Assembly (NCBI GenBank): GCA_002441285.1
Contig: DJVR01000064.1
Coordinates: 313 to 64,312 of the forward strand
Length of the DNA: 64,000 nt
From: Candidatus Atribacteria bacterium UBA6251
Lineage (GTDB): Bacteria > Atribacterota > Phoenicimicrobiia > Phoenicimicrobiales > Phoenicimicrobiaceae
Direction of reading: 5' to 3'
Shown here: in pieces, positions 6,586 to 22,062 of the stretch
Position numbering within the stretch: position 1 is the first letter of the stretch
Layout of the letters: every line of letters begins with the position of its first letter
Position numbers and translations under genes: made by a program
The notes under the pieces: generated by a model
Database searches by the model: none
Seen by the model: only the letters and a program-made list of their open reading frames with translations
Told to the model about the DNA's origin: nothing

Positions 6586-7014
6586 ATGCAAATAAAATTA
6601 TCTATTCGGGAAATTGTAGATCTCTTACCCCATCGTTATCCTTTCTTGTTGGTAGATAAGATTATAGAACAAGAAAAGGATAAGATAGTGGGATTAAAAA
6701 ATGTAAGTAGTAATGAACCTTTTTTTTCAGGACATTTTCCGGGGTATCCAGTTATGCCGGGGGTACTGATTATTGAAGCTATGGCTCAGGTGGCTGGAGT
6801 ATTAATGTTTTCCCGGGAGGAAAATAAGGGAAGGATTCCTCTTTTAGTGGGCATCGATAATGCTCGCTTTAAGAAACAGGTCTTTCCGGGAGATCAATTA
6901 ATTCTGAAAGTTGAAATTATTAAGCAAGTAAAAGGTGTTGGTAAGGCTCGAGCAGAAGCTTTTGTAGATCAAACTTTGGTCGCCTCTGCCAATCTTATGT
7001 TTACTACTATGTAA
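6586..7014 (+). CDS. fabZ: 3-hydroxyacyl-ACP dehydratase FabZ
   Basis: Canonical hot-dog motifs: LPHRYPFLLVD and GHFPGYPVMPGVLIIEAMAQ. Confidence 0.95.
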   Translation: MQIKLSIREIVDLLPHRYPFLLVDKIIEQEKDKIVGLKNVSSNEPFFSGHFPGYPVMPGVLIIEAMAQVAGVLMFSREENKGRIPLLVGIDNARFKKQVFPGDQLILKVEIIKQVKGVGKARAEAFVDQTLVASANLMFTTM

Positions 7015-7043
7015 AAAAAAGTGCCAGGCACCTTTTTTTACAT
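7009..7043. repeat. Family A palindrome copy 1 (ATGTAAAAAAAAGTGCCAGGCACcTTTTTTTACAT), terminator-like
   Basis: 35-nt palindrome centred on 7026 with one mismatch. It contains the fabZ stop codon (7012-7014). Nearly identical copies sit at 17815, 18450 and 21963. Confidence 0.9.
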
Positions 7044-7054
7044 CTGGGGGGAAG

Positions 7055-7780
7055 TTGGTGCAGACTATTAAGACAGAAAGTTTAATTAAGGTTTACCGAA
7101 GAAGAAGGGTAGTTGATGAGGTAAACCTGGAGATAAAAAGAGGAGAAGTGGTAGGCCTTCTGGGACCAAATGGAGCTGGAAAGACCACCACTTTTTATAT
7201 CATTGTAGGTTTAATCAGTCCGGACAAAGGTAAGGTTTTTTTTAATAATAAAGAAATCACCAAAATTCCTATGTATCGACGAGCACGAATGGGTTTAGGT
7301 TATTTAGCCCAAGAACCCTCTATCTTTCGTAAACTTACGGTAGAAGAAAATCTCCTTCTCATTTTAGAATCTTTAGGTATAGAAAAGAGTGAACAAAAAG
7401 AGCTTTGTTATTCTATCTTAAAAGAATTACAGATAGAACATCTGGCTGACTACCGAGGTTATATGCTCTCAGGAGGAGAGAGGCGTCGGGTAGAGATTTC
7501 TCGCACCCTGGTTAGTTCTCCTTCTTTTATGTTGCTGGATGAACCATTTACCGGAGTAGATCCTATTGCTGTTTGTGATATTCAAGAGATTATCGCTTAC
7601 CTTAAAGAAAAAGGGTTAGGGATATTGATTACCGATCATAATGTTAGAGAGACTCTTAAGATTACTGATCGAGCTTATATTATGCACAATGGAAAAATCT
7701 TGACCCAGGGTACTCCTCAGCAGGTAGCTCATTGTGAGATTACGCGTAAAATCTACTTGGGAGAGAGGTTTAATCTTTGA
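7055..7780 (+). CDS. lptB: LPS export ABC transporter ATP-binding protein LptB
   Basis: Walker A GPNGAGKTT, signature LSGGERRR, Walker B MLLDEP, and an LptB-type C-terminal tail YLGERFNL. TTG start with the gggggaag RBS. Confidence 0.9.
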   Translation: MVQTIKTESLIKVYRRRRVVDEVNLEIKRGEVVGLLGPNGAGKTTTFYIIVGLISPDKGKVFFNNKEITKIPMYRRARMGLGYLAQEPSIFRKLTVEENLLLILESLGIEKSEQKELCYSILKELQIEHLADYRGYMLSGGERRRVEISRTLVSSPSFMLLDEPFTGVDPIAVCDIQEIIAYLKEKGLGILITDHNVRETLKITDRAYIMHNGKILTQGTPQQVAHCEITRKIYLGERFNL

Positions 7781-7821
7781 AATAGAATATTAATTAGTTA
7801 ATAAAGAGGGATTCAGAATAT

Positions 7822-8955
7822 ATGTATAGTTTAATTTTGATCCTTACTCTAATTATTGTTAGTGGTTTAATCGCCTCCATCGGTGATTATATAGGTTTAA
7901 AGATTGGAAAAAAAAGAGTATCTATTTTTGGTTTACGCCCTCATTATACTGCTATATTTATTACTATAATAACTGGAATTTTAATTGCAATTATCACTAT
8001 CACAGTGCTTACTATTACTTCTCAAGATGTTCGGACTGCTTTATTTGGAATGGAGGAATTGAAAAATCAGCTTTCCTATCTTTCTAAAGAAGTAGAAAGC
8101 CGAAATATACAGCTATCTTCCCTGCAGGGAGAATTAAAACAAAAATCCAATCAATTGCAGGAAATAGAAGAGCAATTCCAGCAGTTATCTCAGGAAATAC
8201 AGGATAAAACAGTACAACTTACTGATTTGTTATCAGTCAGAGAAGAATTAATTAAAGAAAAAGATAGACTAACTAAAGAAGTAGAAGAATTAAATAAAAC
8301 TATTAAAGCATTATATACTGGCATAACCCTGATGCGAGAAGGCGAGGTAATTTTTGAACCAGATGAACAGATTACTTTTACTGTTATTCAAGGAGGAAAA
8401 CCCAAAGAAGAAATTACTAAAGAATTAATTAAATTTTTAAATGATTCTTCAAGTGTAGCCTTATCTAAAGGAGCTAAATTAGATGAAAGAACCAATCAGG
8501 TGTTTATTATAGCTCAGCAAAATTATGATAATATTGTAGAAAACATCCATCATAGTGATAATAATAAGTATTGGGTAGTAAGACTTTTATCTGCCATTAA
8601 TATCCTGAAAGGAGAACCGGTATTAGCCTATTTTTCATTATTAGAGAATAAATTAATCTTCCAAAAAAACGAAGTAATTATTACCGAAGAAATTACGAGG
8701 TCTGGGGTATCTGAGGAAGTAGAGAAAAGTTTAATATCTCTATTGAGAAAAGTAAATCTTTTAGCGGTAGAAAAAGGGATTATTCCGGAACCAAAGACCA
8801 ATTTTGTAGGTTATGTTTCCGCGGTGAATCTCTATGATATAGTAAAAAAAATTGAGGAATCAAACTCTCCTATGCATGTCTCAATCATTTCTATAAATGA
8901 TACCTGGAGTACTAGCCCTTTAAGGGTAAGAATAGAGGCTGAGCCAGTTTCTTGA
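7822..8955 (+). CDS. Membrane-anchored coiled-coil protein (DUF3084-like architecture)
   Basis: Two N-terminal TM helices, a long heptad-rich coiled coil (QLSSLQGELKQKSNQLQEIEEQFQQLSQEIQDK...) and a C-terminal globular part. The family assignment is from memory of the architecture only. Confidence 0.5.
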   Translation: MYSLILILTLIIVSGLIASIGDYIGLKIGKKRVSIFGLRPHYTAIFITIITGILIAIITITVLTITSQDVRTALFGMEELKNQLSYLSKEVESRNIQLSSLQGELKQKSNQLQEIEEQFQQLSQEIQDKTVQLTDLLSVREELIKEKDRLTKEVEELNKTIKALYTGITLMREGEVIFEPDEQITFTVIQGGKPKEEITKELIKFLNDSSSVALSKGAKLDERTNQVFIIAQQNYDNIVENIHHSDNNKYWVVRLLSAINILKGEPVLAYFSLLENKLIFQKNEVIITEEITRSGVSEEVEKSLISLLRKVNLLAVEKGIIPEPKTNFVGYVSAVNLYDIVKKIEESNSPMHVSIISINDTWSTSPLRVRIEAEPVS

Positions 8956-9032
8956 ACCTAAATAAAGAAGATAAAGGTAGTTAACAAATATATATTTTAC
9001 TATTTTCTTTATGATCCTTGATTTATTTTTAC

Positions 9033-9062
9033 TTGACATACTATAATCATAATGCTTATAAT
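9033..9062 (+). promoter_or_regulatory. Sigma70-type promoter for the SLH porin gene
   Basis: TTGACA (9033-9038), 18-nt spacer, TATAAT (9057-9062). Implies a leader of about 350 nt before the ATG at 9421. Confidence 0.6.
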
Positions 9063-9420
9063 ATAATAAGGAAAAGTAAAGGATTTTAAGAAGAATTATA
9101 CAAGAGATTATTTGTTAAAAAATTAAAAAATTTTTCTAAAAAAAGAAGGATTTTTTTTACACCTTATAGTAATAATATCTAATGAATGAAATTAATTCAG
9201 CAAATAGACGTATCATCTCTAGAAGGTTAAAGTAGGAAGAAAGGAGGTGAAAAAATACTTGGATCTGCTTTAATTTAATGAGATGGTATTAAAACCAGTT
9301 AGTTTATTGATCAAAGGAAGTACTGATGAGGGAACTTTGGATACTCAAAAAGTATTTCCTCCAGATAGATAAGCTTACTGGTGAAATAAAAAATAAAAAC
9401 AAAAAACCAAGGAGGAAAAA

Positions 9421-11091
9421 ATGAAAAAATTACTTTTAGTACTAGTATTGGTCTTCGCTTTTGCACTTCCTGCATTAGCTAACCCCTTTGCCGATGTTCC
9501 ATTAAATCATTGGGCTTATGATGCTGTACAGTCTTTAGCAGCAAAAGGGGTCATTGTAGGTTATCCCGACGGAACCTTTGGTGGTGGGAAAAACCTAACT
9601 CGTTATGAATTTGCTGAAGCAGTAGCTAAAGCCTTAGCTTACGTAGAAGGTATGGATTTTGCCTCTGCTGAAGATGTAGCTATTCTGGAGAAATTAGCTA
9701 TTGAATTTGCAGATGAACTAGCAAATCTTGGGGTGACTGTTGCTGATTTAGAAGCTGCAGTTGGCGCAAATTCTGAAGCCATTGCAGCTTTAGAAGAGAA
9801 AGTAGCCAAACACGAGAAATTCTTTGAACCATTAACTATTACCGGTCAATTTAGAGTAACTTACGACAAGGACGTTCTCCCCACTTCAGCCACTGCTACT
9901 CTAGTAGATCGTACCAGACTATGGTTTAAAGCAGAAATTAATGATACCACTTCAGCAGGAATTAGACTACAGGCTCAGAATACTATTTATGGTACCCCTG
10001 CTATCACCTGGAGCAATTTCTGGCTTGAACACAATGGAGAAAATCTTTTCCTGAGAGTAGGAGATGTATTACCTGATGCCATCGGTTTAGGTTTAATTGC
10101 TTACTACGGAAAAGATGAATGCAGTTCCTACAACTTTGATGGATTTTTAGCCAAGTGGACCTGGGACGATGTTACTGATACTGATTTAGGTAACTGGACT
10201 TTCTTCGGCGATGTGGAAGATTACTATACTTTACACGTAGCCACCACTCTCGGTGAAAAAGATGAAGTCGATTTAGGTCTTACTGCTTCTTATGATTTAG
10301 CTGCTGGTGGTTATGCTGGTGGTGTAGACTTGGCTTTTGATCTCGGTGAAGAAGATGAAGTATCTATTGGTTTAGAAGGTGGAGTATTCTATGATCCTGT
10401 AGCTGCTGCCCTTTCTTATGCAGCTGCTGTTGATGTCGGAGCTTCCCTCGATGATCTAGCTCTTTCTTTAGGTGCATGGTATGTACTTCCTGGTTTTGCT
10501 CCTACTATGACCGATTATAGTGCAGATACATTAGGTGGCTATGTCCAGGCAAAATACCCCTTCGATGAAGAATTTACTGGAAAGGTAAAATTCACCTATG
10601 AGATGGATTCTGCCTTAACTGCTCCAACTACTCAGAAGGTAAGAGGTACTTTAAACTATGTTCCTGAGGATGGTGCTAAGGATGAAAAGGCAGAAGTCTA
10701 CTTAGAATACAACTTCTTAACTGCTGCTGTTACCGCCTTCGGAAAATATATGAACTATCCATTAGCTGATGACTTTGTATTGAGTGGCTTTGTAAAATAT
10801 GTCTATCCTACCAACAATTATGTAGGAGCAGCTACTTTAGAATATAAATTAGCTGATGATATGGATCTAATGGTTGAAGGTCGTGTAGATAGTGATGGAG
10901 CAGCCCTCTGGAGCGCTGAAGCACAAGTAACCTATGCTATTGCTACTAATACTAAGTTGACCTTTGGTTTTGAAATGAACGATTGGAGTGATAACCTCAA
11001 GGATTACGATCCGATAGATACTTGCGAAGATCAGACTACTATACTTGATAATGTTGGCACTCTGAAGGCTCAACTAACCGTAAGCTTCTAA
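9421..11091 (+). CDS. SLH-domain outer membrane porin (OmpM/Mep45/Slp-like OM-peptidoglycan tether)
   Basis: Signal peptide and an N-terminal SLH motif (FADVPLNHWAYDAVQSLAAKGVIVGYPDGTFGG...TRYEFA). Then a coiled-coil stalk and a long amphipathic beta-strand region ending ...LKAQLTVSF. Codon usage is visibly biased (GCT/GGT/GAT/ACT), with a strong RBS aaggagg. Confidence 0.85.
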   Translation: MKKLLLVLVLVFAFALPALANPFADVPLNHWAYDAVQSLAAKGVIVGYPDGTFGGGKNLTRYEFAEAVAKALAYVEGMDFASAEDVAILEKLAIEFADELANLGVTVADLEAAVGANSEAIAALEEKVAKHEKFFEPLTITGQFRVTYDKDVLPTSATATLVDRTRLWFKAEINDTTSAGIRLQAQNTIYGTPAITWSNFWLEHNGENLFLRVGDVLPDAIGLGLIAYYGKDECSSYNFDGFLAKWTWDDVTDTDLGNWTFFGDVEDYYTLHVATTLGEKDEVDLGLTASYDLAAGGYAGGVDLAFDLGEEDEVSIGLEGGVFYDPVAAALSYAAAVDVGASLDDLALSLGAWYVLPGFAPTMTDYSADTLGGYVQAKYPFDEEFTGKVKFTYEMDSALTAPTTQKVRGTLNYVPEDGAKDEKAEVYLEYNFLTAAVTAFGKYMNYPLADDFVLSGFVKYVYPTNNYVGAATLEYKLADDMDLMVEGRVDSDGAALWSAEAQVTYAIATNTKLTFGFEMNDWSDNLKDYDPIDTCEDQTTILDNVGTLKAQLTVSF

Positions 11092-11120
11092 TTAGAGAAG
11101 TTTTAAAAAGTTAAATTAAA

Positions 11121-11153
11121 TAACCCCCGAAAAATTTCGGGGGTTATTTTTTT
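11121..11153 (+). terminator. Rho-independent terminator of the porin gene
   Basis: TAACCCCCGAAA-aa-TTTCGGGGGTTA stem followed by a T7 run. Confidence 0.85.
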
Positions 11154-11360
11154 ATGGCTATTTCTATTGCGGAGATTCCCAAATTATATTATAATTTAAT
11201 TAGTTACTTGGTTAGATAGTTATCTAGTTAATCTGGTTAATTAGTTGGTAAATAAGTTCCCAGTTAATTAAATAATTACTAAACCAACCAAAACAGTCTC
11301 TATCTATTTTTTCTTAACCATTTAACCAACCAGCTAATTAACAGTTTTTAAATTTTTATA

Positions 11361-11409
11361 TTAACTAACTAATTAACTAACTAACCAGTTAACCATTTAA
11401 CTAACTAAC
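11361..11409. repeat. Octamer-periodic tract (CTAACTAA-like units x6)
   Basis: ttaactaa|ctaattaa|ctaactaa|ccagttaa|ccatttaa|ctaactaa, ending just before the RBS aaaggtgg. The complementary-type words (ttagttac ttggttag ...) lie at about 11201-11260. Confidence 0.8.
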
Positions 11410-11428
11410 AAAAAGGTGGTGGCTATAA

Positions 11429-12361
11429 ATGATATTTAAAAAATCATTTGCTCTTCTTTTGGTAATTATTTTTATCTTTACTTCAGTTTTAGCTAATTTT
11501 TCTTGGGCTGCTGAGGTATCTCAGAAGGCCTTGTTGGCAGATTTATCCCAGATAGAAAAGACTATCTATGGTACAATTTCTACTCAGCCTCTAGTCGAAC
11601 GAGTAGAATACTTAGAAAAAGAAATGGTAGGACGCACTCTTCCCGGAACTATTACCAATAGAGTTAAACAATTGAAAGATTTCGTTATTACTGGCACAAT
11701 GGAAGAACCTTCACTTATCTTCAAAATCAATACTTCCCAGTGGACTCTGGATAACCAGATTTCTAATCAACCTTTAATTACCAAGATTGAAAATTTAGAA
11801 AATTTATTATTTGGTAAAACCTCTGAAGATGTCCTAGCTATGAGAGCAGAAGCAATCTTTAGTCTTTGTTTCAAAGAAGGAAAACCACAATTTACCGAAG
11901 TCATTCTTCCGGCTGGGACCTTAATATTAATCAAGTTCCTTAATCAAGTAAGTTCAAATAAGAGCGAGGAAGGAGAAACTTTTAATTTCCAAGTGGCAGA
12001 AAATATTTTCATAGAAGAAAAACTGGTTATTCCAGCCAATACCCAGGGGGTCGGGAAGGTTTCGGAAGCCAAAAAAGCTACTTTATTGGCTCGTCCGGGG
12101 AAATTGACTCTGGAATTTGAAAAGATTTCTGCATTAGATGGTACTCCCTTACAATTAGTGTTAGGGGAGGAAGCCAAAGAAGAGAATAAAAGGATAGCAG
12201 TAGCAGTAGGAGTGGGTGTTTTGGGTTTAATTATCTTAAGTAATCCAGTGGGCTTAATTGCTGGAGCATTAGTTCCTGGTAAGAATGTGAAGATTGAGGA
12301 AGGGACTGAAATGTTCCTGCAAATTGAACAGGATACCCCAGTTATTGCCTTAGTGCCATAA
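11429..12361 (+). CDS. Hypothetical secreted/membrane protein with a glycine-zipper-like TM segment
   Basis: Signal peptide (FSWAAEV). The C-terminal region carries AVAVGVGVLGLIILSNPVGLIAGALVPG. No family recognised. Confidence 0.55.
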   Translation: MIFKKSFALLLVIIFIFTSVLANFSWAAEVSQKALLADLSQIEKTIYGTISTQPLVERVEYLEKEMVGRTLPGTITNRVKQLKDFVITGTMEEPSLIFKINTSQWTLDNQISNQPLITKIENLENLLFGKTSEDVLAMRAEAIFSLCFKEGKPQFTEVILPAGTLILIKFLNQVSSNKSEEGETFNFQVAENIFIEEKLVIPANTQGVGKVSEAKKATLLARPGKLTLEFEKISALDGTPLQLVLGEEAKEENKRIAVAVGVGVLGLIILSNPVGLIAGALVPGKNVKIEEGTEMFLQIEQDTPVIALVP

Positions 12362-12370
12362 TAAAAGAAT

Positions 12371-12442
12371 AAAAGAGGAAAGTCTACTTTTATATAATGC
12401 ATAAAAGTAATATAAGCACATAAAAGTATTCTGTCCCCTTTT
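12371..12442. repeat. Family B inverted-repeat element copy 1 (arms AAAAGAGGAAAGTCTACTTTTA / TAAAAGTATTCTGTCCCCTTTT)
   Basis: Fills the gap between the convergent stop codons at 12361 and 12453. Arms match the family consensus AAAAGGGGACAGGCTACTTTT. Confidence 0.8.
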
Positions 12443-12452
12443 ATTCTCCCAA

Positions 12453-13688
12453 TTAATATTCTACAATGGTGAAAGTTGAATCAGTAGGGTAAACTTGGAC
12501 TTCCTGGGTAATATCAATACTGGTTAATAGATTATCCAATTCTGTAACCCAGTTTTTTATATAGAGATAGGCTTCCTGCAAGCTGACCCTGGTATCCAGA
12601 TTAGTATCCGCTGGGTAACTACCAGAGTAACCGCAACCCTCACATAAAGCCATAGAAAAGACTGCGAAAGGATCGAAGGTTTCTGGTATTATTGGAGAAA
12701 TTTCCATACATTGTTGGTAGTAATGACAGGAAGTTAAGACTTGGTATTGATTTGTGGTAAGTAATCCTTTAGATGGAGCTTGATGAAAAACCTTAATGAG
12801 CTCATTATTAAATGAGTACAATTCTTCTTGAAGTTTTTTTATTTCCTGATATTTTTTACCGATAAAACCTCCAGAATGGCAGGCATCAATAAAGACTACT
12901 TTTATTCCTGGGATAGCGCTTAAAGCATTTTCTAATTCATTTACACTTATAGCTGTATTTACAAAAAAAGTCATATCCGCGGGACAAAGATAAGAAGTGT
13001 TTTTTAATAGCATTCCGTGTCCGCTAAAATAAAAATAGGAAATATCATTATTATCTGCACCTAAAAAACAGGAAGTAATATTCTGCAGGATATTTGATTT
13101 GGTAGCTTGCCAGTCCTTTAAATACCAAATATTAGAAAATAAAGTGTTTGAAGAACCAAAACTGCATTTACTAAGAATATAACACATTCTATCCACATCA
13201 TAAGGCGGGGAAGATAAGTCATTATCACTACCCCAAATATAATTACCTACTCCCACACAAAGAGCTCGATATACTACTTCATTTTGAGTGACAGCAACTG
13301 CCATTGTATCCGATTTGCTTATATTTCCTTCTGTGTAAGTGACTAAGATAATAGTTGTTCCTACTGATATTCCAGTAATTAATCCGTTTGAGTCAACACT
13401 GGTACAATCAGGGTTAGCACTGGAAAAAATACAATTGTTAAGCTTTATGTCTGCTGAGCTAAAATCAGAATAATAAGCAGTCACTGAGGTAATGTATTTT
13501 GATTCTCCCACCTTTAATTCTATAGTCTCAGGTTGAATCTCTATTTTAGTAAGGTAAGGGAGTAAAGTAGTGGAATTAGATGGATTAGGAGGATAGAGAT
13601 ATCTCCAGCAACCGACAAAACATATTAAAAAAGCCAGTAGAAAGAAAAAAATTAATAAATTTTGATTAAAGAATCTTTGTTTATACAT
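12453..13688 (-). CDS. Secreted caspase-family (peptidase C14) protein with N-terminal Big_2-like Ig domain
   Basis: Catalytic motifs YFYFSGHGMLL (His) and VVFIDACHSGGF (Cys). The N-terminal hydrophobic segment ends FVGC (lipobox-like). Big_2-like segment: IEIQPETIELKVGESKYITSVTAYY...GTTIILVTY. Confidence 0.85.
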   Translation of the reverse strand: MYKQRFFNQNLLIFFFLLAFLICFVGCWRYLYPPNPSNSTTLLPYLTKIEIQPETIELKVGESKYITSVTAYYSDFSSADIKLNNCIFSSANPDCTSVDSNGLITGISVGTTIILVTYTEGNISKSDTMAVAVTQNEVVYRALCVGVGNYIWGSDNDLSSPPYDVDRMCYILSKCSFGSSNTLFSNIWYLKDWQATKSNILQNITSCFLGADNNDISYFYFSGHGMLLKNTSYLCPADMTFFVNTAISVNELENALSAIPGIKVVFIDACHSGGFIGKKYQEIKKLQEELYSFNNELIKVFHQAPSKGLLTTNQYQVLTSCHYYQQCMEISPIIPETFDPFAVFSMALCEGCGYSGSYPADTNLDTRVSLQEAYLYIKNWVTELDNLLTSIDITQEVQVYPTDSTFTIVEY

Positions 13689-13791
13689 AACAAAAACTTC
13701 TAAATAAAGAATAAAGATAGTCTTTATACTATATATAATTATTCGATAAGGTTAAAAAAATCTTTTTACCTAAAAATTATTTATTTGATTA

Positions 13792-13852
13792 AAAAAGGGA
13801 CTGTTTACTTCTAAACTGAGATATAGTATAAAAGTAGCCTGTCCCCTTTAAA
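13792..13852. repeat. Family B inverted-repeat element copy 2
   Basis: Arms AAAAAGGGACTGTTTACTT and AAAAGTAGCCTGTCCCCTTTAAA. Lies downstream of the minus-strand lipoprotein gene and upstream of the caspase gene. Confidence 0.75.
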
Positions 13853-13887
13853 TAATTTTCATTATTAGATCCAGATTAAGTTAAAGA

Positions 13888-14208
13888 TTAAGGATAAAGA
13901 TACACATAGTTTACTCCAGCATGAATATATCTTGTGACATAATAATAGCCCCACCAATAACCATCGACATCAATTGCTTCAAAGAAGTGATTTCCTATTG
14001 GAACATTATATAAGACATAAGTCCCTGGTGCAACTCCCGAGAACTTTTGAGTGTAATCCATCCAAATGTTATAATACCAGGAACCTGATACCACTATATA
14101 AACTGTTCCTGTAGTCGGATAAGTTGGTACACATCCTGTAAATGCGAGTGACAAAAATGCAATTACTACTAATACCAGAATACCTTTTACTAAAACATTC
14201 TTTTTCAT
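13888..14208 (-). CDS. Small Tyr/Trp-rich lipoprotein (PEGA-like beta-sandwich?)
   Basis: Lipobox LAFTGC. 106 aa and very aromatic-rich (GYWWGYYYVTRYIHAGVNYVYLYP). Strong RBS (gaggaggtg on the minus strand). Confidence 0.7.
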   Translation of the reverse strand: MKKNVLVKGILVLVVIAFLSLAFTGCVPTYPTTGTVYIVVSGSWYYNIWMDYTQKFSGVAPGTYVLYNVPIGNHFFEAIDVDGYWWGYYYVTRYIHAGVNYVYLYP

Positions 14209-15746: not shown

Positions 15747-15761
15747 TGATATTATTATAAT

Positions 15762-16355
15762 ATGCGAAGAAGTAAAAATATTTGGTTGATAATAATTTTA
15801 ATCATTTTTCTATCTATAGGGGCATATTTTTATTTTTTTTCTAACCGAGAAAAAGATAAGGAGCTAGAACAGCCAAAGGAAGAAAAAAAAGAGATAGCTG
15901 AAGAAGAGGTCATCGTTAATGAAGCCCCGGTCAGGATTGAACAGGGAAGAGTAGTGGGAATGAAAGGCGGGGTAAAAGAGTGGGAGATAGAAGCAGAAAA
16001 GATCTCTTTAGCCCAGGACAGAAAAATGACTGTTTTTGAGAAGATTAACAAGGCGATTATCTTTAGAGACAATGAGCCTTACTGGAATATTCAATTAGAG
16101 AAATGTATTGCAGATATGGGTAGTAATAATATGGAATTAATAGGCGGAGTAATCTTTGAATCAAAAGAAGGAGATATTTTAAAGGGGAATAGATTTTACT
16201 GGAATTCACAAGACCAAACCTTATCCAGCTTAGAGCCTGTGGAACTGCTAGTAGAAGATAATTGGATAATCGCAGATTGGATGAGCACTGACATAGAATT
16301 AAATATGCTCGAATTGGAGGGAAAAGTAAAGGCAGTTTTTAAAATTAAAGGATAG
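15762..16355 (+). CDS. LptC-like bitopic protein (tentative)
   Basis: 197 aa with a single N-terminal TM helix followed by a beta-rich domain. Called from size, topology and position upstream of an OstA/LptA-like gene. No diagnostic motif could be checked by eye. Confidence 0.45.
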   Translation: MRRSKNIWLIIILIIFLSIGAYFYFFSNREKDKELEQPKEEKKEIAEEEVIVNEAPVRIEQGRVVGMKGGVKEWEIEAEKISLAQDRKMTVFEKINKAIIFRDNEPYWNIQLEKCIADMGSNNMELIGGVIFESKEGDILKGNRFYWNSQDQTLSSLEPVELLVEDNWIIADWMSTDIELNMLELEGKVKAVFKIKG

Positions 16356-16385
16356 AATATCTTATTTAAAAGAGATGGAAAGAGA

Positions 16386-16721
16386 ATGAATAAAGAGAGA
16401 TTAAAAAAATCTATTATATCTTTATACCAAAAAATAGATCCAGAAAGAATAATTCTGTTTGGTTCTTGGTGTAAAGCAGAACAAGATCAATACAGCGATG
16501 TAGACAGGATCATAATTTATGATACTAAAAAGAGGGTTTTAGATAGATTAAAAGAGCTTTACCTTTTATGGAATATCCCCATTGCCTTTGATTTGCTTGC
16601 TTATACCCCACAAGAATTTGAAAAGATGCTGAAAGAAAAAAATCCCTTTATTGAAAGAATAAAAAAAGAAGGAGAGGTTGTCTATGAAAGACTCGGACAA
16701 GAAAGCACTTCGCTGGTTTAA
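16386..16721 (+). CDS. Nucleotidyltransferase-domain protein (MNT-type antitoxin)
   Basis: The LFGSWCKAEQDQYSDVDRIIIY motif (GS...DxD), 111 aa, overlapping the start of a HEPN remnant. Confidence 0.8.
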   Translation: MNKERLKKSIISLYQKIDPERIILFGSWCKAEQDQYSDVDRIIIYDTKKRVLDRLKELYLLWNIPIAFDLLAYTPQEFEKMLKEKNPFIERIKKEGEVVYERLGQESTSLV

Positions 16722-17108
16722 GCACTCAGAAGATGACCTTGAAATGGTAAGATGGTTGAATGTTGAATAAAGAAAAAAATTTTTTAGATAAAGGATGTTT
16801 TATAGCTCAGCAAACTGGAAAAAAACATTGAAATCCGGACTTTATACTTAAGGAGAAAGAATAGTAATAAGGCATTCTTTTAAGAATTTTTTGAAAAAAT
16901 AAGAAATGAAGTTTTAGAATTTTAGGAAATTAGGGATGAATGTAGGAGGTTAGATCGTGATTATATTCCTACCAGATATCCTAATGGTTTACCTGGTGGA
17001 ATACCTTTTCAGTATTTTATGGAAAGTGATATAAAAAGTGCTTTAAAAGATAAGGAAAAGGTTTTAAATTTTTATAGGATATTTCTCCAGAAGAAAGGAG
17101 GGTTATAA
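16684..17108 (+). pseudogene. Decayed HEPN-domain toxin gene (partner of the MNT gene)
   Basis: ATG 16684 gives MKDSDKKALRWFKHSEDDLEMVRWLNVE, then TAA at 16768. Further HEPN-like pieces lie in other frames (CFIAQQTGKK...). The C-terminal fragment LDRDYIPTRYPNGLPGG... runs 16950-17108. Confidence 0.7.
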
Positions 17109-17113
17109 ATAAA

Positions 17114-17815
17114 TTGAAAAATATTCAAAAAACCTATTTTATTAAAATTATTGTTTTGCTTTTTAGCTTATTTTTAATAGTAACTTTATCTTCAGTGGTG
17201 GTTTTGGCACAAAAAGCAGAAAGCGAAGAAGGAAAAGAGGCAACAGAAACTACAGTAAGTATAGAGGCGGATAAGGTTCTTTATGATAAGAGTATGGATA
17301 AGATGAACTTTCAAGGAAATTTAAGAATTTTGCAGGAGGATATTGTTTTAACGGCAGAGGAAGCTGAATTTGATGTGAACCAGAAGATTGGGCAGATTAA
17401 GAACAATATTAAGTTGGTGCAGAAAGATATCACCATTACTGGTGAAGCTCTGGAAGCATTTCTTAATGATAAAAGATATATCTTCCAGGGAGAAGTAAAA
17501 CTAATTCAAGAACGCAAAGATGAAGAAGGAAAAGAAGATAATATTATCTGGAATGCCCCTCAATTGGAGATTTTGGCTGATAGCAAAGATATTACTGCTA
17601 CCGGAGGAGTAAAGATTTTAAAGAAGGACTATACTATTACAGCAGAGCAGGCAGTTTATAATGATCAGGAACAGAAGATAGAACTAAAAGGAAAAGTAAA
17701 GATAGAAGAAGAGGAAAGTAATCGCTGGATCTCCGGTGATCAAGCTATCTTTTTTATCGAATCTGAAAGATTAGAAGTCACCGGCAATGTACATAGCGGC
17801 CTCAAATTAGACTAA
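17114..17815 (+). CDS. LptA/OstA-like periplasmic protein
   Basis: Signal peptide and repeated OstA-like strands (IEADKVLYDKSMDKMNFQGNLRILQEDIVLTAEEAEFD...). TTG start after the RBS aaaggaggg. Confidence 0.65.
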   Translation: MKNIQKTYFIKIIVLLFSLFLIVTLSSVVVLAQKAESEEGKEATETTVSIEADKVLYDKSMDKMNFQGNLRILQEDIVLTAEEAEFDVNQKIGQIKNNIKLVQKDITITGEALEAFLNDKRYIFQGEVKLIQERKDEEGKEDNIIWNAPQLEILADSKDITATGGVKILKKDYTITAEQAVYNDQEQKIELKGKVKIEEEESNRWISGDQAIFFIESERLEVTGNVHSGLKLD

Positions 17816-17849
17816 TGTAAAAAAAAGTGCCAGGCACTTTTTTTTACAT
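17815..17849. repeat. Family A palindrome copy 2 (perfect)
   Basis: ATGTAAAAAAAAGTGCCAGGCACTTTTTTTTACAT, starting at the last base of the preceding stop codon. Confidence 0.9.
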
Positions 17850-17865
17850 CGAGAGGGAGAAGGAA

Positions 17866-18447
17866 ATGAAAGATTGCAGAAAATGGTTTATATTAATCAT
17901 TTTGGGAATAGTTTTATTGACGGGGGGATGTGCTCGCTGGCCTGATGGTTCAGATGAGCCTGGTGAAACTCAATATCAAGTACAAATTACCGTCCAGGTT
18001 CAAGGGCAAGTTAGTTCAGATTTAAATAAGGGAAAATATTATATAGTGCTAGATACAGATGAGAATACTGCTGATGGACCAGGGGCTAATATTTTGCTCT
18101 GGGATGATGAATTTTATTATATTATAAAGTATGAGGGTGGTTTCTTTGATTTTACTCAAGTAGGAGGAGTAGAATCTTTTACCGGTAGTGGAGAGGTAAT
18201 TGAGGAAGACGAAATAAGAGTTACTTTCGATTTGAATGATTTAGGTAATCCCGAAAGCCTGGATATTAATGTAGTAACTACCGACAAAGATAATAATACC
18301 TATGATTCTCTGGATGCAGGTTATTTTTCTATTTATACCAACCGACTTGGTGCTACTAATACTATAAATGATCGTTTTGATGATTCAGGAGAGGGAGGAG
18401 TAGATTTTGACATCATTAAAGTGACAACTTTAATCACTACTCCCTGA
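17866..18447 (+). CDS. Acidic lipoprotein of unknown family (candidate LptE analogue)
   Basis: The track ORF starts at 17827, inside the palindrome. The ATG at 17866 (MKDCRKWF...) follows the RBS gagggagaagg and gives the lipobox LLTGGC. The product is about 193 aa. Confidence 0.7.
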   Translation: MKDCRKWFILIILGIVLLTGGCARWPDGSDEPGETQYQVQITVQVQGQVSSDLNKGKYYIVLDTDENTADGPGANILLWDDEFYYIIKYEGGFFDFTQVGGVESFTGSGEVIEEDEIRVTFDLNDLGNPESLDINVVTTDKDNNTYDSLDAGYFSIYTNRLGATNTINDRFDDSGEGGVDFDIIKVTTLITTP

Positions 18448-18449
18448 TT

Positions 18450-18484
18450 ATGTAAAAAAAAGTGCCAGGCACTTTTTTTTACAT
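18450..18484. repeat. Family A palindrome copy 3 (perfect), bidirectional terminator position
   Basis: Fills almost exactly the 37-nt gap between the convergent stop codons at 18447 and 18485. Confidence 0.9.
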
Positions 18485-20764
18485 CTATTGTTGGCCGATG
18501 GTGATCTTTTCGGTGGGGAAGGCTTTGATGTAAAATTCTAACCAGAAAGATTGAGTGGCTTGTTTATAATTAAAACGAATTTCTCGGCAATGTAAATCTC
18601 TGGTAATACCGATTACACTATTTCTTACTTCCCAATCCTCTAAGTCGATTATACCTTTATAATTAACCTTCCAATTATCGCTCAGTTTAAGATCAAGGGT
18701 AGTATTTATCTCTTTGCTCCACTCTGAGGTATTTAAATTGTAAGAGGTATTAAAATTCATTTTCCAGTCTTCTTTAGGTTTATATGCTAATTTAGCTACC
18801 AGGCTGGCGAAGCTTTCCGCCACAAAATCATAATTAGTAGATAAATTTAAGTCGATTTTTTCAGTAGGAGTAAAAGCCAAAGTCCCTTTGATAAAATGTG
18901 TTAGGGGGTCAATATAATCAAACTTAAAAGGTGTTGGCCCTTCTGTCTTATTATAACTATAGTTCAAAGTAGCGGATAGATAAGGATTATAAGTAGTTTT
19001 TACCTCTATTTTTCCTCCGACTAAATAGCGTGCTTCACCGGTGAGATAGACATCCTGTCGGAAGATACCAGCTGGAGTAATACTGATATTATCTCCAAAT
19101 TTGAAAGGTCTTTTTAAATTAAAAATAAATTCACCACGCCAGTTATCCTCATCTGAGGAATATTCATAAAAATGAGCCACTGAGGTATTAATATCATAAG
19201 AAATCTTGGTTTCTCCCAGAAGGGCAGAGCTTTTTATAAAAGTAAATTCTGGTAAACGATCGATTATTTTGGAAACATTTTCTCCCGTGTAATCATCTTC
19301 ATCCAGGTCAAATCTCTTTTTTGCAACTACATTCACTTTATAGCCTTCGCCCTGAAATTTTAATTCCCACTCTGGAGTGAGCTCCAAATCAGCAAATTCC
19401 TGAGTAGAGGGATGATTTTGGGTAAAATATAGAGTAAGTATAGAATTTAATTGATCACTAATAGTATAGTCATATTTTGCCTTGATATTGCCATTAATAC
19501 CCAGATTATCTAAATCCTTTCCACTAAATTTATATTTTCCGGATAGTTGAAAAGTATAATTTTCTCCGGCTTTATCTAAAGTAAACTGGGAATTCAGGGT
19601 ATTACTGGCTAAAGTTCCATTTGGATTTCTAACCCCGGAATAATTTAAAATCATCTGAGTCGTCAAATCCTGCCCTTTGAATTCCTGCTGATATTTTAAT
19701 TCTCCGTTCAAACTGATCTTATCAGTATCCTTATTCTTAATCTGATAAAGATACAAAGAAGTCTCGCCAGGGTTATTATCTCCTCCAATTTCTAAAGTAT
19801 GAGTAAATCCCAATCCTAATCCCTTCTTCTGTAACCAGTCTGCATAAATGATACCATAAGATTTTTCGGTTATATAATAATTGAAATTAGTCTTTATATA
19901 CCAGCCGTCAGCACTGTTTTGTCCAATCTTAGGGAGGATGGGTTGTTGAGTTTTACGATCTAAAAAGATTATAAAATAGGGAAGGGTAATAATCTTCAAG
20001 TTTCCTTCGTACCAGGAGATATGGCGGGCAATGATTTTATCTTTAGGATAGATAATTAACTCTTTAGCTTCCAGGTGATAATGAGGTTCTGCCAGATCAC
20101 AGGTGGTGAAAGTCCCTCCAGTTATTTCCACTGTCTCCGGGAAGTTTTCCATCTTTTCTCCAGTAAAATAGATCTTCCCCTTTATTCCTTCACCAGTCAA
20201 TTCTCCTTTTAAGCGAATAAGGATTATCTTTTCTGTCTTCCAGTTGTAAGTGACTTCTTCACAATAAGTTTCTGTCTCTTCTTGCTTTAAAAAAACCTCT
20301 CCAGAAGCCCAGAATAAATTTTTATTTAGGTTAATCTTTAATTCCTGACTCTTTATTTCCGTATTATTATATTTTAATTCGACTCCTTCTCGGGCGACAA
20401 TAATATCTTCACCTTCCACCTTTTCATAGGTAATAGATTCTGCCTTTAAGGAAATTTCGTCCTCTGCTTCTTTCCCGGTTTCTTCACTTTTTGCTTCTGC
20501 CTGTTCTTCTCCGAGCTCAATTATTGTCGAGGAAGTTTCAGTTGAAAAGGTATTAGTAGAGGAAATTTCTGGTGATCCGGGGCCTTCTCCTTCTTCAGAG
20601 GCAGGTTCAATATCTGTAGTAGCTGGAGTCTCTTGAGCCCAGGCAGTGGAATCTATTAGCCATTTTCCATTAAAAATAAAGTTTGGTGAGCTTACTCCTA
20701 AAACCGTTGTTAGCACTATTATTAAATAAATTATTAATGGAAATATTTTTTTTGATTTTTGCAT
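18485..20764 (-). CDS. LptD-like outer membrane beta-barrel with N-terminal OstA-like domain
   Basis: 759 aa with a signal peptide and an acidic low-complexity linker. OstA-like segment (ISLKAESITYEKVEGEDIIVAREGVELKYNNTEIKSQELKINL...) followed by a long alternating beta-strand region. Lies adjacent to lptF/G. Confidence 0.6.
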   Translation of the reverse strand: MQKSKKIFPLIIYLIIVLTTVLGVSSPNFIFNGKWLIDSTAWAQETPATTDIEPASEEGEGPGSPEISSTNTFSTETSSTIIELGEEQAEAKSEETGKEAEDEISLKAESITYEKVEGEDIIVAREGVELKYNNTEIKSQELKINLNKNLFWASGEVFLKQEETETYCEEVTYNWKTEKIILIRLKGELTGEGIKGKIYFTGEKMENFPETVEITGGTFTTCDLAEPHYHLEAKELIIYPKDKIIARHISWYEGNLKIITLPYFIIFLDRKTQQPILPKIGQNSADGWYIKTNFNYYITEKSYGIIYADWLQKKGLGLGFTHTLEIGGDNNPGETSLYLYQIKNKDTDKISLNGELKYQQEFKGQDLTTQMILNYSGVRNPNGTLASNTLNSQFTLDKAGENYTFQLSGKYKFSGKDLDNLGINGNIKAKYDYTISDQLNSILTLYFTQNHPSTQEFADLELTPEWELKFQGEGYKVNVVAKKRFDLDEDDYTGENVSKIIDRLPEFTFIKSSALLGETKISYDINTSVAHFYEYSSDEDNWRGEFIFNLKRPFKFGDNISITPAGIFRQDVYLTGEARYLVGGKIEVKTTYNPYLSATLNYSYNKTEGPTPFKFDYIDPLTHFIKGTLAFTPTEKIDLNLSTNYDFVAESFASLVAKLAYKPKEDWKMNFNTSYNLNTSEWSKEINTTLDLKLSDNWKVNYKGIIDLEDWEVRNSVIGITRDLHCREIRFNYKQATQSFWLEFYIKAFPTEKITIGQQ

Positions 20765-20766
20765 CT

Positions 20767-21891
20767 TTATTTCTTTTCAGCTCCTAGCATAATAAATATG
20801 CCTAAAATGCCAAAGACTAGGTTCGGTAACCAAGCTGAAGTAATCGGGTCTATCATTCCACCTCGACCCATAGAGCGAGTAACGGATAAGAAAACATAAT
20901 AGGATAAGATTAAAACAATACTAATCACTATTCCAGTTGCCTTGCTACCTCTCTTAACTCTTAGACCCAGGGGTACACCCATTAAAACAAAGATTAGTCC
21001 TGAATAGGGTATAGAAAATTTCATATGGTAATCTACTTCAAAATTTTTGGTATCTGCCCCAGCTTGTTTCAAAATCTCTATCTGTTGACTTAACTCTTTA
21101 CTACTCATTTCCTGAGGGGTCCGTTGATTGGTAAAGAATTTTTGTAAATCTTCCTTTACTATAATATCCAGATTGATAAAGTCCATTTCATAAGTAATTT
21201 TACCATTTTCATCGTAATTGTAGATAGTTCCATTCTCCAGTTTCCAGGTATCTACTACCCAGACACCTCTTTTTGCTGTAATAACTCGAGGGAATTTTTC
21301 TCGAGTCATTTCATAAACCATAATATCTTGCATAATCATTCCATCTTCATCCAGTTTATTGATGTAAAAATAACGATTTTCTGCATCCCTAAAGAAGACA
21401 TTGCGCATGATATTGGGAGGACCCTTTTTTAAGACAATTTCGCGAATAATATTCTGGGAAATGTGGTTTGCTTCCGGAACTATGTAATCATTGATGTAAA
21501 AAGATAATATGCTGACTAATAGGGAGGCGACCAAGAAAGGAATCATAATCCGCCTTAGGCTTATTCCTCCAGCGCGCATAGCGGTAATCTCTCCATCGGT
21601 AGATAATCTAGCAATCGCAAATTCACTGGAGGCTAATAAGGACATAGGGAAGGTTACTACTAAGTAGGCAGGAAGACGGTAAATTAATAATTTAGCTACA
21701 TATTGCCAGGCTACCCTTTTATTAATCAATATATCCAGTAGTTCAAAAAGGGTTTGCATAATAAGCATAATAGTAAGGGCAGCAACTGCCAGTGCCACAA
21801 AACTTAACACCTCTTTGATAATATAGCGGTCTAATATCTTAGGCCACCATAAAAAACTTCTTCTCCTCTTTACCGACATCTCCATAGTCAT
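20767..21891 (-). CDS. LptF/LptG family permease (YjgP/YjgQ)
   Basis: 374 aa with 6 predicted TM segments and a periplasmic beta-jellyroll insert. The N-terminus ILDRYIIKEV is typical of the family. Confidence 0.85.
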   Translation of the reverse strand: MTMEMSVKRRRSFLWWPKILDRYIIKEVLSFVALAVAALTIMLIMQTLFELLDILINKRVAWQYVAKLLIYRLPAYLVVTFPMSLLASSEFAIARLSTDGEITAMRAGGISLRRIMIPFLVASLLVSILSFYINDYIVPEANHISQNIIREIVLKKGPPNIMRNVFFRDAENRYFYINKLDEDGMIMQDIMVYEMTREKFPRVITAKRGVWVVDTWKLENGTIYNYDENGKITYEMDFINLDIIVKEDLQKFFTNQRTPQEMSSKELSQQIEILKQAGADTKNFEVDYHMKFSIPYSGLIFVLMGVPLGLRVKRGSKATGIVISIVLILSYYVFLSVTRSMGRGGMIDPITSAWLPNLVFGILGIFIMLGAEKK

Positions 21892-21962
21892 TTTAGCTTC
21901 CTATTTTCCTGCTTATACTATTGTATTTTTATCCAGTATAACATATTTTCTTTTTTAACAAA

Positions 21963-21997
21963 ATGTAAAAAAAAGTGCCAGGCACTTTTTTTTACAT
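21963..21997. repeat. Family A palindrome copy 4 (perfect), in a divergent intergenic region
   Basis: Same 35-mer, lying between the starts of lptF/G (21891, minus) and the TPR gene (22063, plus). Confidence 0.9.
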
Positions 21998-22062
21998 TGA
22001 ACTAGCTGGGGAACTATTATATAATTATAAAGTTAAATGGAAGAAAAGAAAAGGTAGGAAAG

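Follow-up and report, generated by a model that had tools for sequence, protein, structure and literature searches.

Palindromes at gene junctions of the lpt/bam region

The window analyzed here, a stretch of 64,000 nucleotides from the Atribacterota draft genome UBA6251 (designated G000), contains an lpt/bam region of envelope genes in which a 35-nt palindrome recurs at four gene junctions. A search of the window with the 35-mer located the following copies:

Copy 1, 7009-7043, no strand assigned: variant with one mismatch (T24C), one arm being changed to GGCACC, which gives an A.C mismatch on the + strand
Copy 2, 17815-17849, no strand assigned: perfect
Copy 3, 18450-18484, no strand assigned: perfect
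Copy 4, 21963-21997, no strand assigned: perfect

This search confirmed the four positions, the single mismatch in copy 1 and the stop-codon relations that had been given in the original prediction. None of 100 shuffled controls yielded any match to the 35-mer, and the core GTGCCAGGCAC is present in the window only within the four copies. No Rfam family was detected in the window.

The last codon (ATG, 7009-7011) and the stop codon (TAA, 7012-7014) of fabZ are supplied by copy 1, after which the Shine-Dalgarno sequence GGGGGGAAG and the start codon (GTG, 7058) of lptB follow within 15 nt. Copy 2 begins on the final A of an LptC/LptA-like gene's TAA (17813-17815); 3-16 nt past the copy, a lipoprotein gene follows with its Shine-Dalgarno sequence GAGGGAGAAGG and its ATG (17866). 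Copy 3 takes up 35 of the 37 nt between two convergent stop codons (18445-18447 and 18485-18487), which belong to this lipoprotein gene and to a 759-aa gene that had been labeled lptD in the original prediction and for which no NCBIfam match was found. Copy 4 is situated between the divergent lptF/G (start at 21891, - strand) and TPR (start at 22063, + strand) genes; a promoter-like TTGAAC-17-TATAAT sequence (21997-22025) adjoins its right end, and its central base is A in G000 and T in the sister species.

Genome-wide distribution of the palindrome

When the genome-wide count proposed in the original prediction was carried out on the whole of G000 (1.705 Mb in 67 contigs, 78.7% complete), 22 copies were found on 10 contigs, corresponding to approximately 13 per Mb. 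The claim that the palindrome is confined to the lpt/bam region thus holds inside the window but not in the genome, where copies also flank purN/purM, argD/argG, argC, udk/mltG, lexA, rsmA, psu, and an acyl-CoA ligase gene. All 22 copies are intergenic or overlap the 3' end of a gene by no more than 26 nt (chance P ~5e-19). The 16-mers of the element are the commonest 16-mers in the genome, and the element represents its only multi-copy palindrome family of any size. All other hairpins of at least 10 bp, including terminator-like ones, are different from each other and essentially unique, which agrees with the earlier remark that ordinary terminators are idiosyncratic in sequence.

A strong preference for one type of junction is evident. 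In thirteen of the 22 cases the copy precedes the next operon gene's Shine-Dalgarno sequence by 0-7 nt and its start codon by 9-25 nt, which leaves no room for a promoter; five copies are located between divergent genes and three between convergent genes, and two are found in long tandem spacers. Copies are also clustered, as contigs C15 and C19 (8% of the genome) hold 13 of the 22 (p 1e-9), and clustering was likewise observed on the transposase-bearing contigs of other genomes (G015:C34, G009:C23, and G004:C4).

The flanks of the copies contain neither a convincing target-site duplication nor a fixed target word. AAG is found beside one end in about 8 of the 22 copies. The orientation of the central base relative to transcription is unbiased (approximately 7 against 7 in tandem contexts), and none of the contig ends of G000 terminates in the element. 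A possible connection with CCWGG (Dcm/EcoRII-type) sites was dropped because these sites are not avoided in the genome (observed/expected 0.95).

A single-copy Y1/HUH gene bracketed by the palindrome

On a contig other than that of the window, a single-copy Y1/HUH gene (G000:C19:4598-5503) has perfect palindromes 39 nt upstream and 6 nt downstream. Although seven Y1_Tnp matches were identified in G000, abundant 16-mers flank only this one (36 occurrences, the highest count in the genome, vs 1-16 for the others); it is the only repeat-bracketed gene of the genome, and the other six matches have no abundant flanking palindromes.

The product, a protein of 301 aa with an HTH-like C-terminal tail, matches Pfam Y1_Tnp at 41 bits (cut-off 23). 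Its only NCBIfam match is NF047646 (REP-associated tyrosine transposase; 63.9 bits over positions 3-146 of 146, below the 80-bit cut-off). The structure 4ER8, in which E. coli TnpA-REP is complexed with a REP hairpin, is both the only PDB sequence match and the top fold match (Foldseek E 3e-5, target TM 0.62), and fold matches 2-25 all have the IS200/IS605-type Y1/HUH fold. The HxH residues (H62 and H64) and Y121 are invariant in 32 homologs, Y121 being aligned with Y115 of TnpA-REP. Further motifs of the protein are THFH, FQ, SY[IL]xLNP, and WSS.

Orthologs of this gene (50-60% identity) were detected in 17 of 24 genomes of the same family and in none of 16 sister-family genomes, with one per genome in nearly all cases. 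Their locus is fixed, with an amidohydrolase gene on one side and a large Omp85 gene on the other wherever it extends to these neighbors, and in each of the 18 ortholog loci examined the gene is flanked on at least one side by a palindrome whose 11-nt tip is identical throughout. The distribution of the element is similar: the 17-mer AARGTGCCWGGCACYTT occurs in 20 of the 24 same-family genomes (1-21 copies) and in none of the 16 sister-family genomes, and its reversed control was not found at all. The element was present with no detected ortholog in G002, G010, G017, and G023, all of which are drafts in many contigs. When 185,579 species genomes were scanned with an exact 23-mer, matches were obtained in one Atribacterota genome and in four stretches from Spirochaetales, Oligoflexia, and Bacillota contigs; the latter were treated as unrelated hairpins, as their palindromes are shorter, their outer arms differ, and no RAYT lies in the stretch. 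A scan of metagenomes retrieved only four related loci, and a scan of viral contigs with the core 19-mer gave no match.

Covariation of the stem and turnover of sites

The element forms a perfect palindrome. Its stem spans 16-20 bp and is AT-rich, with A/T at the base and the conserved GT paired to AC. In every palindrome flanking an ortholog, an invariant tip (GTGCC-W-GGCAC) is combined with a lineage-specific, perfectly compensated outer stem. Among 30 distinct copies, 88.6% of cells pair, compared with 38-57% in slid controls, and 16 stem pairs change on both sides, some of these pairs occurring as three, or even all four, of the Watson-Crick types. On four of five covariation measures, no shuffle out of 500 attained the observed value; on the remaining measure a single shuffle did. 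Within one genome that has one protein, several outer-stem subfamilies coexist, all of them with full compensation.

Comparison of orthologous sites, also proposed in the original prediction, reveals that sites 1 and 2 are filled or empty depending on lineage and that copy 3 is limited to close relatives. The site of copy 1 is filled in the sister species (L079 2705-2739) and empty in G003, G004, and other genera; in G003 and G004 the fabZ stop codon is followed by 11 nt and the lptB GTG. At the site of copy 2, lineage-specific variants are present in G015, G012, G002, and G008, and the site is empty in G001. Copy 3 was found only in G000, the sister species, and a related metagenome lineage (L052-L055), and not in other genera. 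Its site in the sister species (L079 13614-14591) holds two copies with a 908-nt MNT/HepT toxin-antitoxin cassette between them, for which no homolog was found in G000. The site of copy 4 is filled in G014, G015, G002, and G007.

At closer range, a 99.98%-identical contig from another sample carries the same four copies, and all 10 comparable copies are present in the sister species (86-94% nucleotide identity). The elements are far better conserved than their flanks, with 339 of 340 paired positions identical and a flank divergence of 6-14%. A selfish element would fit this pattern, but gene conversion or a function at the level of the host would fit it equally well.

A probable REP/RAYT-type system

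We consider it highly probable that the palindrome is a REP-type hairpin of this Atribacterota family and that its cognate enzyme is the single-copy, vertically inherited, RAYT-like Y1/HUH transposase with an HTH-like tail, which is bracketed by two copies in a REPtron-like arrangement. A REP/MITE-like mobile hairpin was among the possibilities originally raised, and it is the REP/RAYT form of that idea that is supported by the flanked Y1 gene, NF047646, 4ER8, and the orthologs.

With regard to catalysis, the mechanism of mobility and effects at the RNA level, we infer the following scheme. On single-stranded DNA the element would fold into a hairpin of 16-20 bp, whose invariant tip would be recognized by the Y1 enzyme and whose outer stem would need only to pair. 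The enzyme would cut and rejoin at the hairpin foot and may in this way seed, maintain, and occasionally flip copies, mostly near its own locus; gene cassettes could be bracketed by paired copies. Surviving copies are located precisely where a stop codon is followed by the next Shine-Dalgarno sequence. By analogy with the REPs of E. coli, transcribed copies are probably partial terminators or stabilizers of mRNA 3' ends rather than full terminators, and termination would be a side effect at most.

Target-site duplications are not expected of Y1 enzymes, so their absence here is what such an enzyme would predict. The coexistence of fully compensated stem subfamilies with one protein suggests base pairing rather than sequence read-out, and the clustering of copies would follow from the position of the transposase gene close by. 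On the other hand, no direct sign of recent movement was found, the same copies being present in the near-identical contig and in the sister species; the sub-cut-off score of NF047646, the low number of about 20 copies, the missing GTAG/GTGG tag and GC-rich foot by which classical REPs are defined, the occurrence of the copies as singletons, the four draft genomes with the element but no detected ortholog, and the conservation of the elements beyond that of their flanks also count against the REP/RAYT reading.

With the palindrome and its RAYT, the known REP/RAYT kind of element gains a new host, in which its form is somewhat unusual. As in the REPtrons of E. coli (REP and TnpA-REP, 4ER8) and in Pseudomonas REPIN-RAYT systems, a single-copy, syntenic and vertically inherited Y1/HUH gene is flanked by a dispersed extragenic hairpin, stem subfamilies show compensatory changes, and orthologous sites persist across species. 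However, the element is fully symmetric and has no unpaired 5' GTAG/GTGG (or CGTC) tag and no GC-rich foot, and hence no such polarity; its 22 copies in G000 are all singletons with no inverted doublets (adjacent pairs occur only in G004, beside its RAYT gene), unlike BIME or REPIN doublets; and the RAYT, with its HTH-like tail, has 301 aa instead of about 165 aa. Classical REP families comprise more than 100 copies, compared with about 20 here. The donation of stop codons to neighboring genes is a further shared property, as it is also known for GTAG REPs (PMC3733652).

The closest form of the hairpin is found in the 'double-foot' REPs of TnpA-REP subclass 2.4, which are symmetric, begin with GT at the 5' side and end with the complementary AC at the 3' side. 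Quentin et al. (2018, PMC6006769) point out that loss of the central part of an inverted REP dimer could give rise to such a form. These REPs have the foot GT[AG]G and hosts mainly among Cyanobacteria and Bacteroidetes, and their enzymes show the motifs NH[IFV]H, WQ, and YIxNNP, in contrast to the THFH, FQ, SY[IL]xLNP, and WSS found here. By its motifs rather than by a phylogeny, the Y1 protein fits TnpA-REP subclass 2.1, or RAYT group 1 (which includes TIRYTs and TIRtrons), with which it shares an xH[YF]H-type HuH (here THFH), FQ, a Y-x-x-LNP resembling Y[IV]HLNP, an SS tail, and an HTH-type C-terminal extension. The 16-mers flanking group 1 genes are only modestly abundant (approximately 12; Bertels et al. 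2017), which is similar to the copy number observed here. The sequences that flank TIRYTs are half-sites (terminal inverted repeats, GGGG[AT][CG]A[CG]), whereas complete palindromes lie on each side of the present gene, and subclass 2.1 genes have been reported without adjoining REP-like sequences (Quentin et al., PMC6006769). The Y1/HUH fold, subterminal hairpins, lack of target duplication, and single-stranded DNA chemistry are also features of IS200/IS605 elements (IS608, ISDra2); in the present case, however, the single gene copy remains at its fixed locus rather than moving together with the hairpins, which are dispersed alone, and there is no tnpB.

Alternative explanations

The copies might instead be first of all bidirectional intrinsic terminators that are kept identical by selection, the neighboring transposase being incidental. 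The symmetric succession of A-tract, GC stem, and T-tract is that of such terminators, and the predicted RNA folds reach -17 to -19 kcal/mol on both strands (-14.3 kcal/mol for copy 1, with its mismatch), but the nucleating inner GC stem that directly precedes the U8 in both directions is just 4-5 bp (variants in other genera have stems of 16-20 bp followed by U4-6). A consensus terminator scan flags copies 2 and 3, and the three convergent copies together with the two in long tandem spacers would fit ends of transcription units; the five divergent copies do not, and if transcription ended completely at the operon-internal copies, each just ahead of a downstream cistron's Shine-Dalgarno sequence, then lptB, an Omp85 gene, purN, argG, and other genes would be silenced. 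Partial termination is known for the REPs of E. coli (bioRxiv 10.64898/2026.03.23.713779). Termination alone would leave unaccounted for the invariant tip, the tie to one Y1 gene in all 18 loci examined, and the flipping of the central base, and it is difficult to reconcile with an element identical at 22 mostly operon-internal or divergent sites in a genome whose other hairpins of this size are all different. We therefore regard this explanation as quite improbable, and the proposal of dedicated bidirectional terminators of the envelope region, with which the original prediction started, is not supported as the identity of an element whose copies are not specific to envelope genes.

It is very improbable that the copies are double-stranded operators through which a dimeric regulator, possibly the Y1 protein's own HTH tail, co-regulates envelope biogenesis genes. 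The invariant 5-1-5 core does resemble a dimer operator, and the helical C-terminal domain of the Y1 protein is confidently predicted (pLDDT ~88) with weak matches to HTH_7, HTH_29, and GerE; yet the stem subfamilies, each compensated, coexist with one protein. The concentration of copies around lpt/bam/LPS genes is accounted for by proximity to the transposase locus, and although two sites are conserved across genera, most copies follow stop codons rather than adjoin promoters. The purN/purM, argD/argG, argC, udk/mltG, lexA, rsmA, psu, and acyl-CoA ligase neighbors elsewhere in the genome likewise do not fit an envelope regulator, as had also been suggested. An origin as a MITE of a DDE-type insertion sequence or a role as a DNA-uptake sequence is hardly credible for this short, dispersed palindrome, in which AAGTGC presumably resembles the Haemophilus uptake sequence only superficially: there is no target-site duplication, the sole repeat-flanked gene is the Y1 gene, viral contigs gave no matches, and uptake sequences occur roughly once per kb, coding DNA included, whereas only 22 strictly intergenic copies exist in 1.7 Mb and none lies inside a gene.

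Implications

The REP/RAYT interpretation implies that a lineage of uncultured anaerobes in the Atribacterota/Caldatribacteriota carries an AT-rich REP family, and that the motifs of its partner enzyme are those of the HTH-tailed TnpA-REP subclass for which the large survey cited above found no REPs (PMC6006769). Repeat searches in which a GTAG tag and a GC-rich stem are obligatory will therefore miss such systems. The invariant 11-nt tip, the covarying stem, the flipping of the central base, and the strong preference for stop-to-Shine-Dalgarno junctions make the family a good model for RAYT recognition, and it is also suited to asking whether REPs are kept for the benefit of the host. In this respect, a further and rather unlikely proposal is that the HTH-tailed RAYT and its approximately 20 hairpins form a domesticated host system rather than a selfish one, in which the enzyme, by cleavage and rejoining or gene conversion, would keep a vertically inherited set of hairpins letter-perfect and also flip the central base; it would place them precisely where a ribosome-binding site follows a stop codon, the hairpins might there tune the relative expression of neighboring cistrons, and gene cassettes, for instance the toxin-antitoxin pair of the sister species, could dock at pairs of hairpins. 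For genome annotation and assembly, the element matters in that it supplies stop codons to genes, gives rise to false GTG starts that translate as VPGTF, and breaks short-read assemblies.

A dispersed palindromic repeat in the genome

The 35-nt palindrome (ATGTAAAAAAAAGTGCCAGGCACTTTTTTTTACAT) was matched again at all four window positions where it had been noticed, in the gene context originally described: skp, fabZ, lptB, LptC/LptA-like genes, a lipoprotein gene, a 759-aa gene (lptD in the original prediction, without an NCBIfam match), lptF/G, and a TPR gene. Shuffled versions of the window gave zero matches to the 35-mer, and the 11-nt core does not occur in the window beyond these four copies.

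Copy 1, 7009 (one change, T24C): fabZ takes its final codon and its stop from the element (ATG-TAA)
Copy 2, 17815: one-base overlap with a TAA
Copy 3, 18450: occupies 35 of the 37 nt separating convergent stops
Copy 4, 21963: between divergent gene starts

The repeat had been thought to be confined to the lpt/bam region; however, a search of the whole draft genome (1.705 Mb, 33.5% GC, 78.7% complete), in which the window spans C15:313-64312, detected 22 copies on 10 contigs. Its 16-mers are the commonest in the genome, above those of a 22-repeat CRISPR array, and none of the approximately 180 other hairpins with stems of at least 10 bp belongs to a family exceeding three copies. Every one of the 22 copies is either intergenic or reaches at most 26 nt into the 3' end of a gene, in a genome that is 85% coding (P ~5e-19). 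An envelope-specific role is not supported, because neighbors outside the window contig (C15) and contig C19 include purM|purN, argD|argG, argC, mltG|udk, lexA, rsmA, and an acyl-CoA ligase gene.

Several sequence features accompany the copies in the window. Read outward, both ends of the element give TTTACA, which resembles a -35 hexamer, and a promoter-like TTGAAC-17-TATAAT (window 21997-22025) adjoins the right end of copy 4. A GTG in the core (GTG CCA GGC ACT TTT, giving VPGTF) is taken as an ORF start by gene callers, which generates false N-terminal extensions at window 17827-17865 and in three public proteins (P0032, P0058, and P0059); the true start codon of the lipoprotein gene is the ATG at 17866, downstream of a good Shine-Dalgarno sequence. 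In the interval 16386-16965 of the window, an MntA-like nucleotidyltransferase ORF (111 aa) lies between two LptC-type genes, and approximately 320 nt (16647-16965) are without an equivalent in the sister species, GCA_054682955.1.

A RAYT-like gene flanked by the repeat

Scanning the genome with the Pfam Y1_Tnp profile yielded seven hits, one of which lies between two element copies:

C19:4557-4591, element copy
C19:4598-5503, minus strand, Y1_Tnp gene
C19:5543-5577, element copy

Among the seven Y1 genes, abundant flanking 16-mers, the RAYT criterion of Bertels et al. (2017), were found only at this one. Its 301-aa product contains the motifs DTHFHLL (HUH motif) and SYLALNPV and scores above the Pfam Y1_Tnp cut-off; the sole NCBIfam match, over the full profile, is NF047646 'REP-associated tyrosine transposase' (63.9 bits, below the 80-bit equivalog cut-off). 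Some homologs are labeled 'REP element-mobilizing transposase RayT' by JGI. The sole PDB sequence match is Escherichia coli TnpA-REP (4ER8, E 0.39), in which H62/H64 align with the HxH of the enzyme and Y121 with Tyr115, its catalytic residue. The AlphaFold model (mean pLDDT 65) also has 4ER8 as its best fold match (E 3e-5, target TM 0.62), followed by the IS608, ISDra2, and IS200 transposases, and its residues 220-300 are confidently modeled as a helical domain (pLDDT 77-92, mostly 87-92) that weakly matches HTH_7, HTH_29, and GerE.

Contigs C15 and C19 hold 13 of the 22 copies yet represent 8% of the genome (p 1e-9), and copies in relatives are also clustered on the transposase contig. We read this clustering as the result of copies being seeded locally by the RAYT locus, itself situated in an envelope-biogenesis neighborhood, which would explain the concentration in the lpt/bam region that was originally noticed.

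Conservation of the gene and covariation of the hairpin stem

Full-length orthologs (50-60% identity) are present in 17 of the 24 genomes of the same family but in none of 16 sister-family genomes. At all 11 ortholog loci checked, an amidohydrolase gene, a >1000-aa Omp85-family gene, or both occupy conserved positions; such a fixed locus is the behavior of a domesticated, vertically inherited RAYT and not of an insertion sequence. A palindrome lies approximately 100 nt upstream and/or 45 nt downstream of the gene in 18/18 loci examined, and all share the tip GTGCC-W-GGCAC. Its central base is A or T in all 22 copies of the window's genome (in a search allowing any base) and in every relative's copy searched with the center left free. 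The remaining stem is lineage-specific and perfectly complementary (ATGTAAAAAAAA, AAATGTAAACAAAG, AAAAGTTAACCAAAG, AAAAGTGTCCTAAAG, AAAAGGGAAACAAAG, and AAAAGGTAAACTTTA). The 17-mer AARGTGCCWGGCACYTT occurs in 20 of the 24 family genomes (1-21 copies each) and in none of the 16 sister-family genomes, and its reversed control gave zero; in an apparent exception (G006), the 11-nt tip is identical and the adjoining bases are different. Single genomes carry several stem subfamilies side by side, with chimeric copies now and then.

Among 30 distinct copies, pairing cells reached 88.6% versus 38-57% in slid controls, and 16 of 22 pairs changed on both sides, some showing three or all four Watson-Crick pair types. 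Mirrored changes in both arms were likewise observed in two copies of the window's genome, C2:11589 (A8C + T28G) and C56:15097 (A5C + T31G). On four of five measures, no shuffle out of 500 attained the observed value, and on the fifth a single shuffle did so. Because the 30 copies are related to one another, these shuffle figures overstate significance, and the slid controls are the fairer comparison. In our reading, the protein may recognize the tip, whereas the outer stem would need only to pair, which points to a single-stranded hairpin and not a double-stranded operator.

Two further arrangements were noted. In G004, a relative, adjacent element pairs (L004 772-834 and 7588-7650) flank the RAYT gene at 6697-7578, each consisting of a full palindrome plus a second copy with outer arm ATGACAAATTT, and are thus doublet-like. 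Palindromes in the Spirochaetales MAG JAISAF01 (46-52% GC; L005 5614-5648 and L009 1554-1582) have the same 23-nt center AAAAAAGTGCCTGGCACTTTTTT with different GC-rich outer arms; the stretches fetched contain no RAYT, and these palindromes could be due to chance or be distant relatives of the family.

Placement and history of individual copies

Before insertion, the gene junctions now occupied by 15 of the 22 copies measured no more than 40 nt; junctions of this size contribute only 2.6% of all intergenic bases (p 3e-19) and represent 37.5% of the spacers (p 0.003), although the crude gene calls used (longest ORF of at least 90 aa) if anything inflate the short-spacer share. The Shine-Dalgarno sequence of the next gene starts 0-7 nt past the element in 13 copies, with the start codon 9-25 nt away, and at nine copies the upstream gene terminates in the element's own ATG-TAA. 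Donation of stop codons is known for GTAG REPs (PMC3733652).

Comparison of orthologous intergenic regions, as originally suggested, revealed both occupied and empty sites. In the sister species (86-94% nucleotide identity), 10/10 comparable copies are present; at the 34 paired positions per copy, 339/340 are identical, whereas flanks diverge by 6-14%. Four of these ten copies have a flipped central base (A to T or T to A). Together with the restriction of the center to A or T noted above, this fits inversion of a perfect palindrome, or its gene conversion irrespective of orientation, better than point mutation. The copy 2 and copy 4 sites are filled in several genera by each lineage's own variant, and copy 3 was found only in the window's genome, the sister species, and a related metagenome lineage among the genera examined. 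In G003 and G004, the copy 1 site holds no element: the fabZ stop is separated from the lptB GTG by just 11 nt, which include a ribosome-binding site. Other genera also lack an element there. These histories indicate that turnover exists but is slow, a pattern also described for REPIN populations. A contig from another sample (99.98% identical) has the same four copies, and two short-read contigs end inside the element.

Where copy 3 lies, the sister species (L079 13614-14591) has a REP, a 908-nt MNT/HepT toxin-antitoxin cassette, and a second REP, versus a single REP in the window's genome, which contains no homolog of the cassette; it was either mobilized by the repeat pair or deleted via recombination between two copies. 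Downstream of fabZ in other genera (G015, G008, G005, G001, and G014; L059, L060, L062, L063, and L065), lptB is not adjacent and runs of short tandem words take the place of copy 1 (TAGTATA, AGTCGTT, GTTACCCA, and AGTTACTT/AGTTAGAT).

Possible effects on transcripts

RNA folding of either strand gave -17 to -19 kcal/mol (-14.3 kcal/mol for copy 1), and the DNA hairpins gave -10 to -20 kcal/mol. The copies had been proposed to act as bidirectional intrinsic terminators, but strong termination is excluded at copies 1 and 2, which leave no promoter room before lptB and the lipoprotein gene and must therefore be read through. By analogy, partial termination with 3'-end protection would be the likeliest side effect of the element; both have been shown for E. 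coli REP325 (bioRxiv 10.64898/2026.03.23.713779). It could also interfere with terminating ribosomes. REPs within approximately 15 nt of a stop codon are reportedly the ones that matter. Such interference by REPs is attributed to Liang, Rudd and Deutscher (2015), as cited in PMC6006769.

Comparison with known REP/RAYT systems and other repeats

The system has the features of a REPtron: a Y1/HUH enzyme encoded by a syntenic single-copy gene, flanks of that gene carrying the repeat that is dispersed through the genome, and an extragenic location of the copies. However, the element lacks the unpaired GTAG tag, GC-rich foot, and doublet organization of classical REPs; the nearest shape is the 'double-foot' REPs of TnpA-REP subclass 2.4. 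Motifs of the protein (THFH, FQ, SY[IL]xLNP, WSS, and HTH tail) fit subclass 2.1/RAYT group 1, a motif-based and not phylogenetic assignment that we infer tentatively. Quentin et al. (PMC6006769) reported no REPs for subclass 2.1, and Bertels et al. (2017) only modest flanking repeats for group 1. Our literature search turned up no publication that connects Atribacterota with RAYT, REPIN, or palindromes of this type.

A second repeat, ACA(A/C)GGGGACGGTTCTCTGTG, has six occurrences, some as inverted pairs:

C34:25317/25365
C34:30756/33254
C34:36964
C17:68163

TIRYT/TIRtron elements have similar terminal repeats, GGGG[AT][CG]A[CG]. One copy of this second repeat adjoins the Y1 paralog C34:37016-37777, and the Y1 paralog C28:108-908 has a related GGGGACGGTCC word next to it. 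The sequence GTTATTTAAGAATTAAAAGTG(AAC) is found at 15 contig ends (e.g., the starts of C2, C3, C14, and C19 and the ends of C16, C18, C29, and C30) and at C34:37859, mostly with a GTCAA-like word approximately 20 nt upstream; being present in multiple copies, it interrupts the assembly. In a CRISPR-like array at C33:15799-17385, a 37-nt repeat (GTTGGAAAACTAGACCCGATTTATAGGGGATTGAGAC) recurs 22 times with a spacing of approximately 75 nt.
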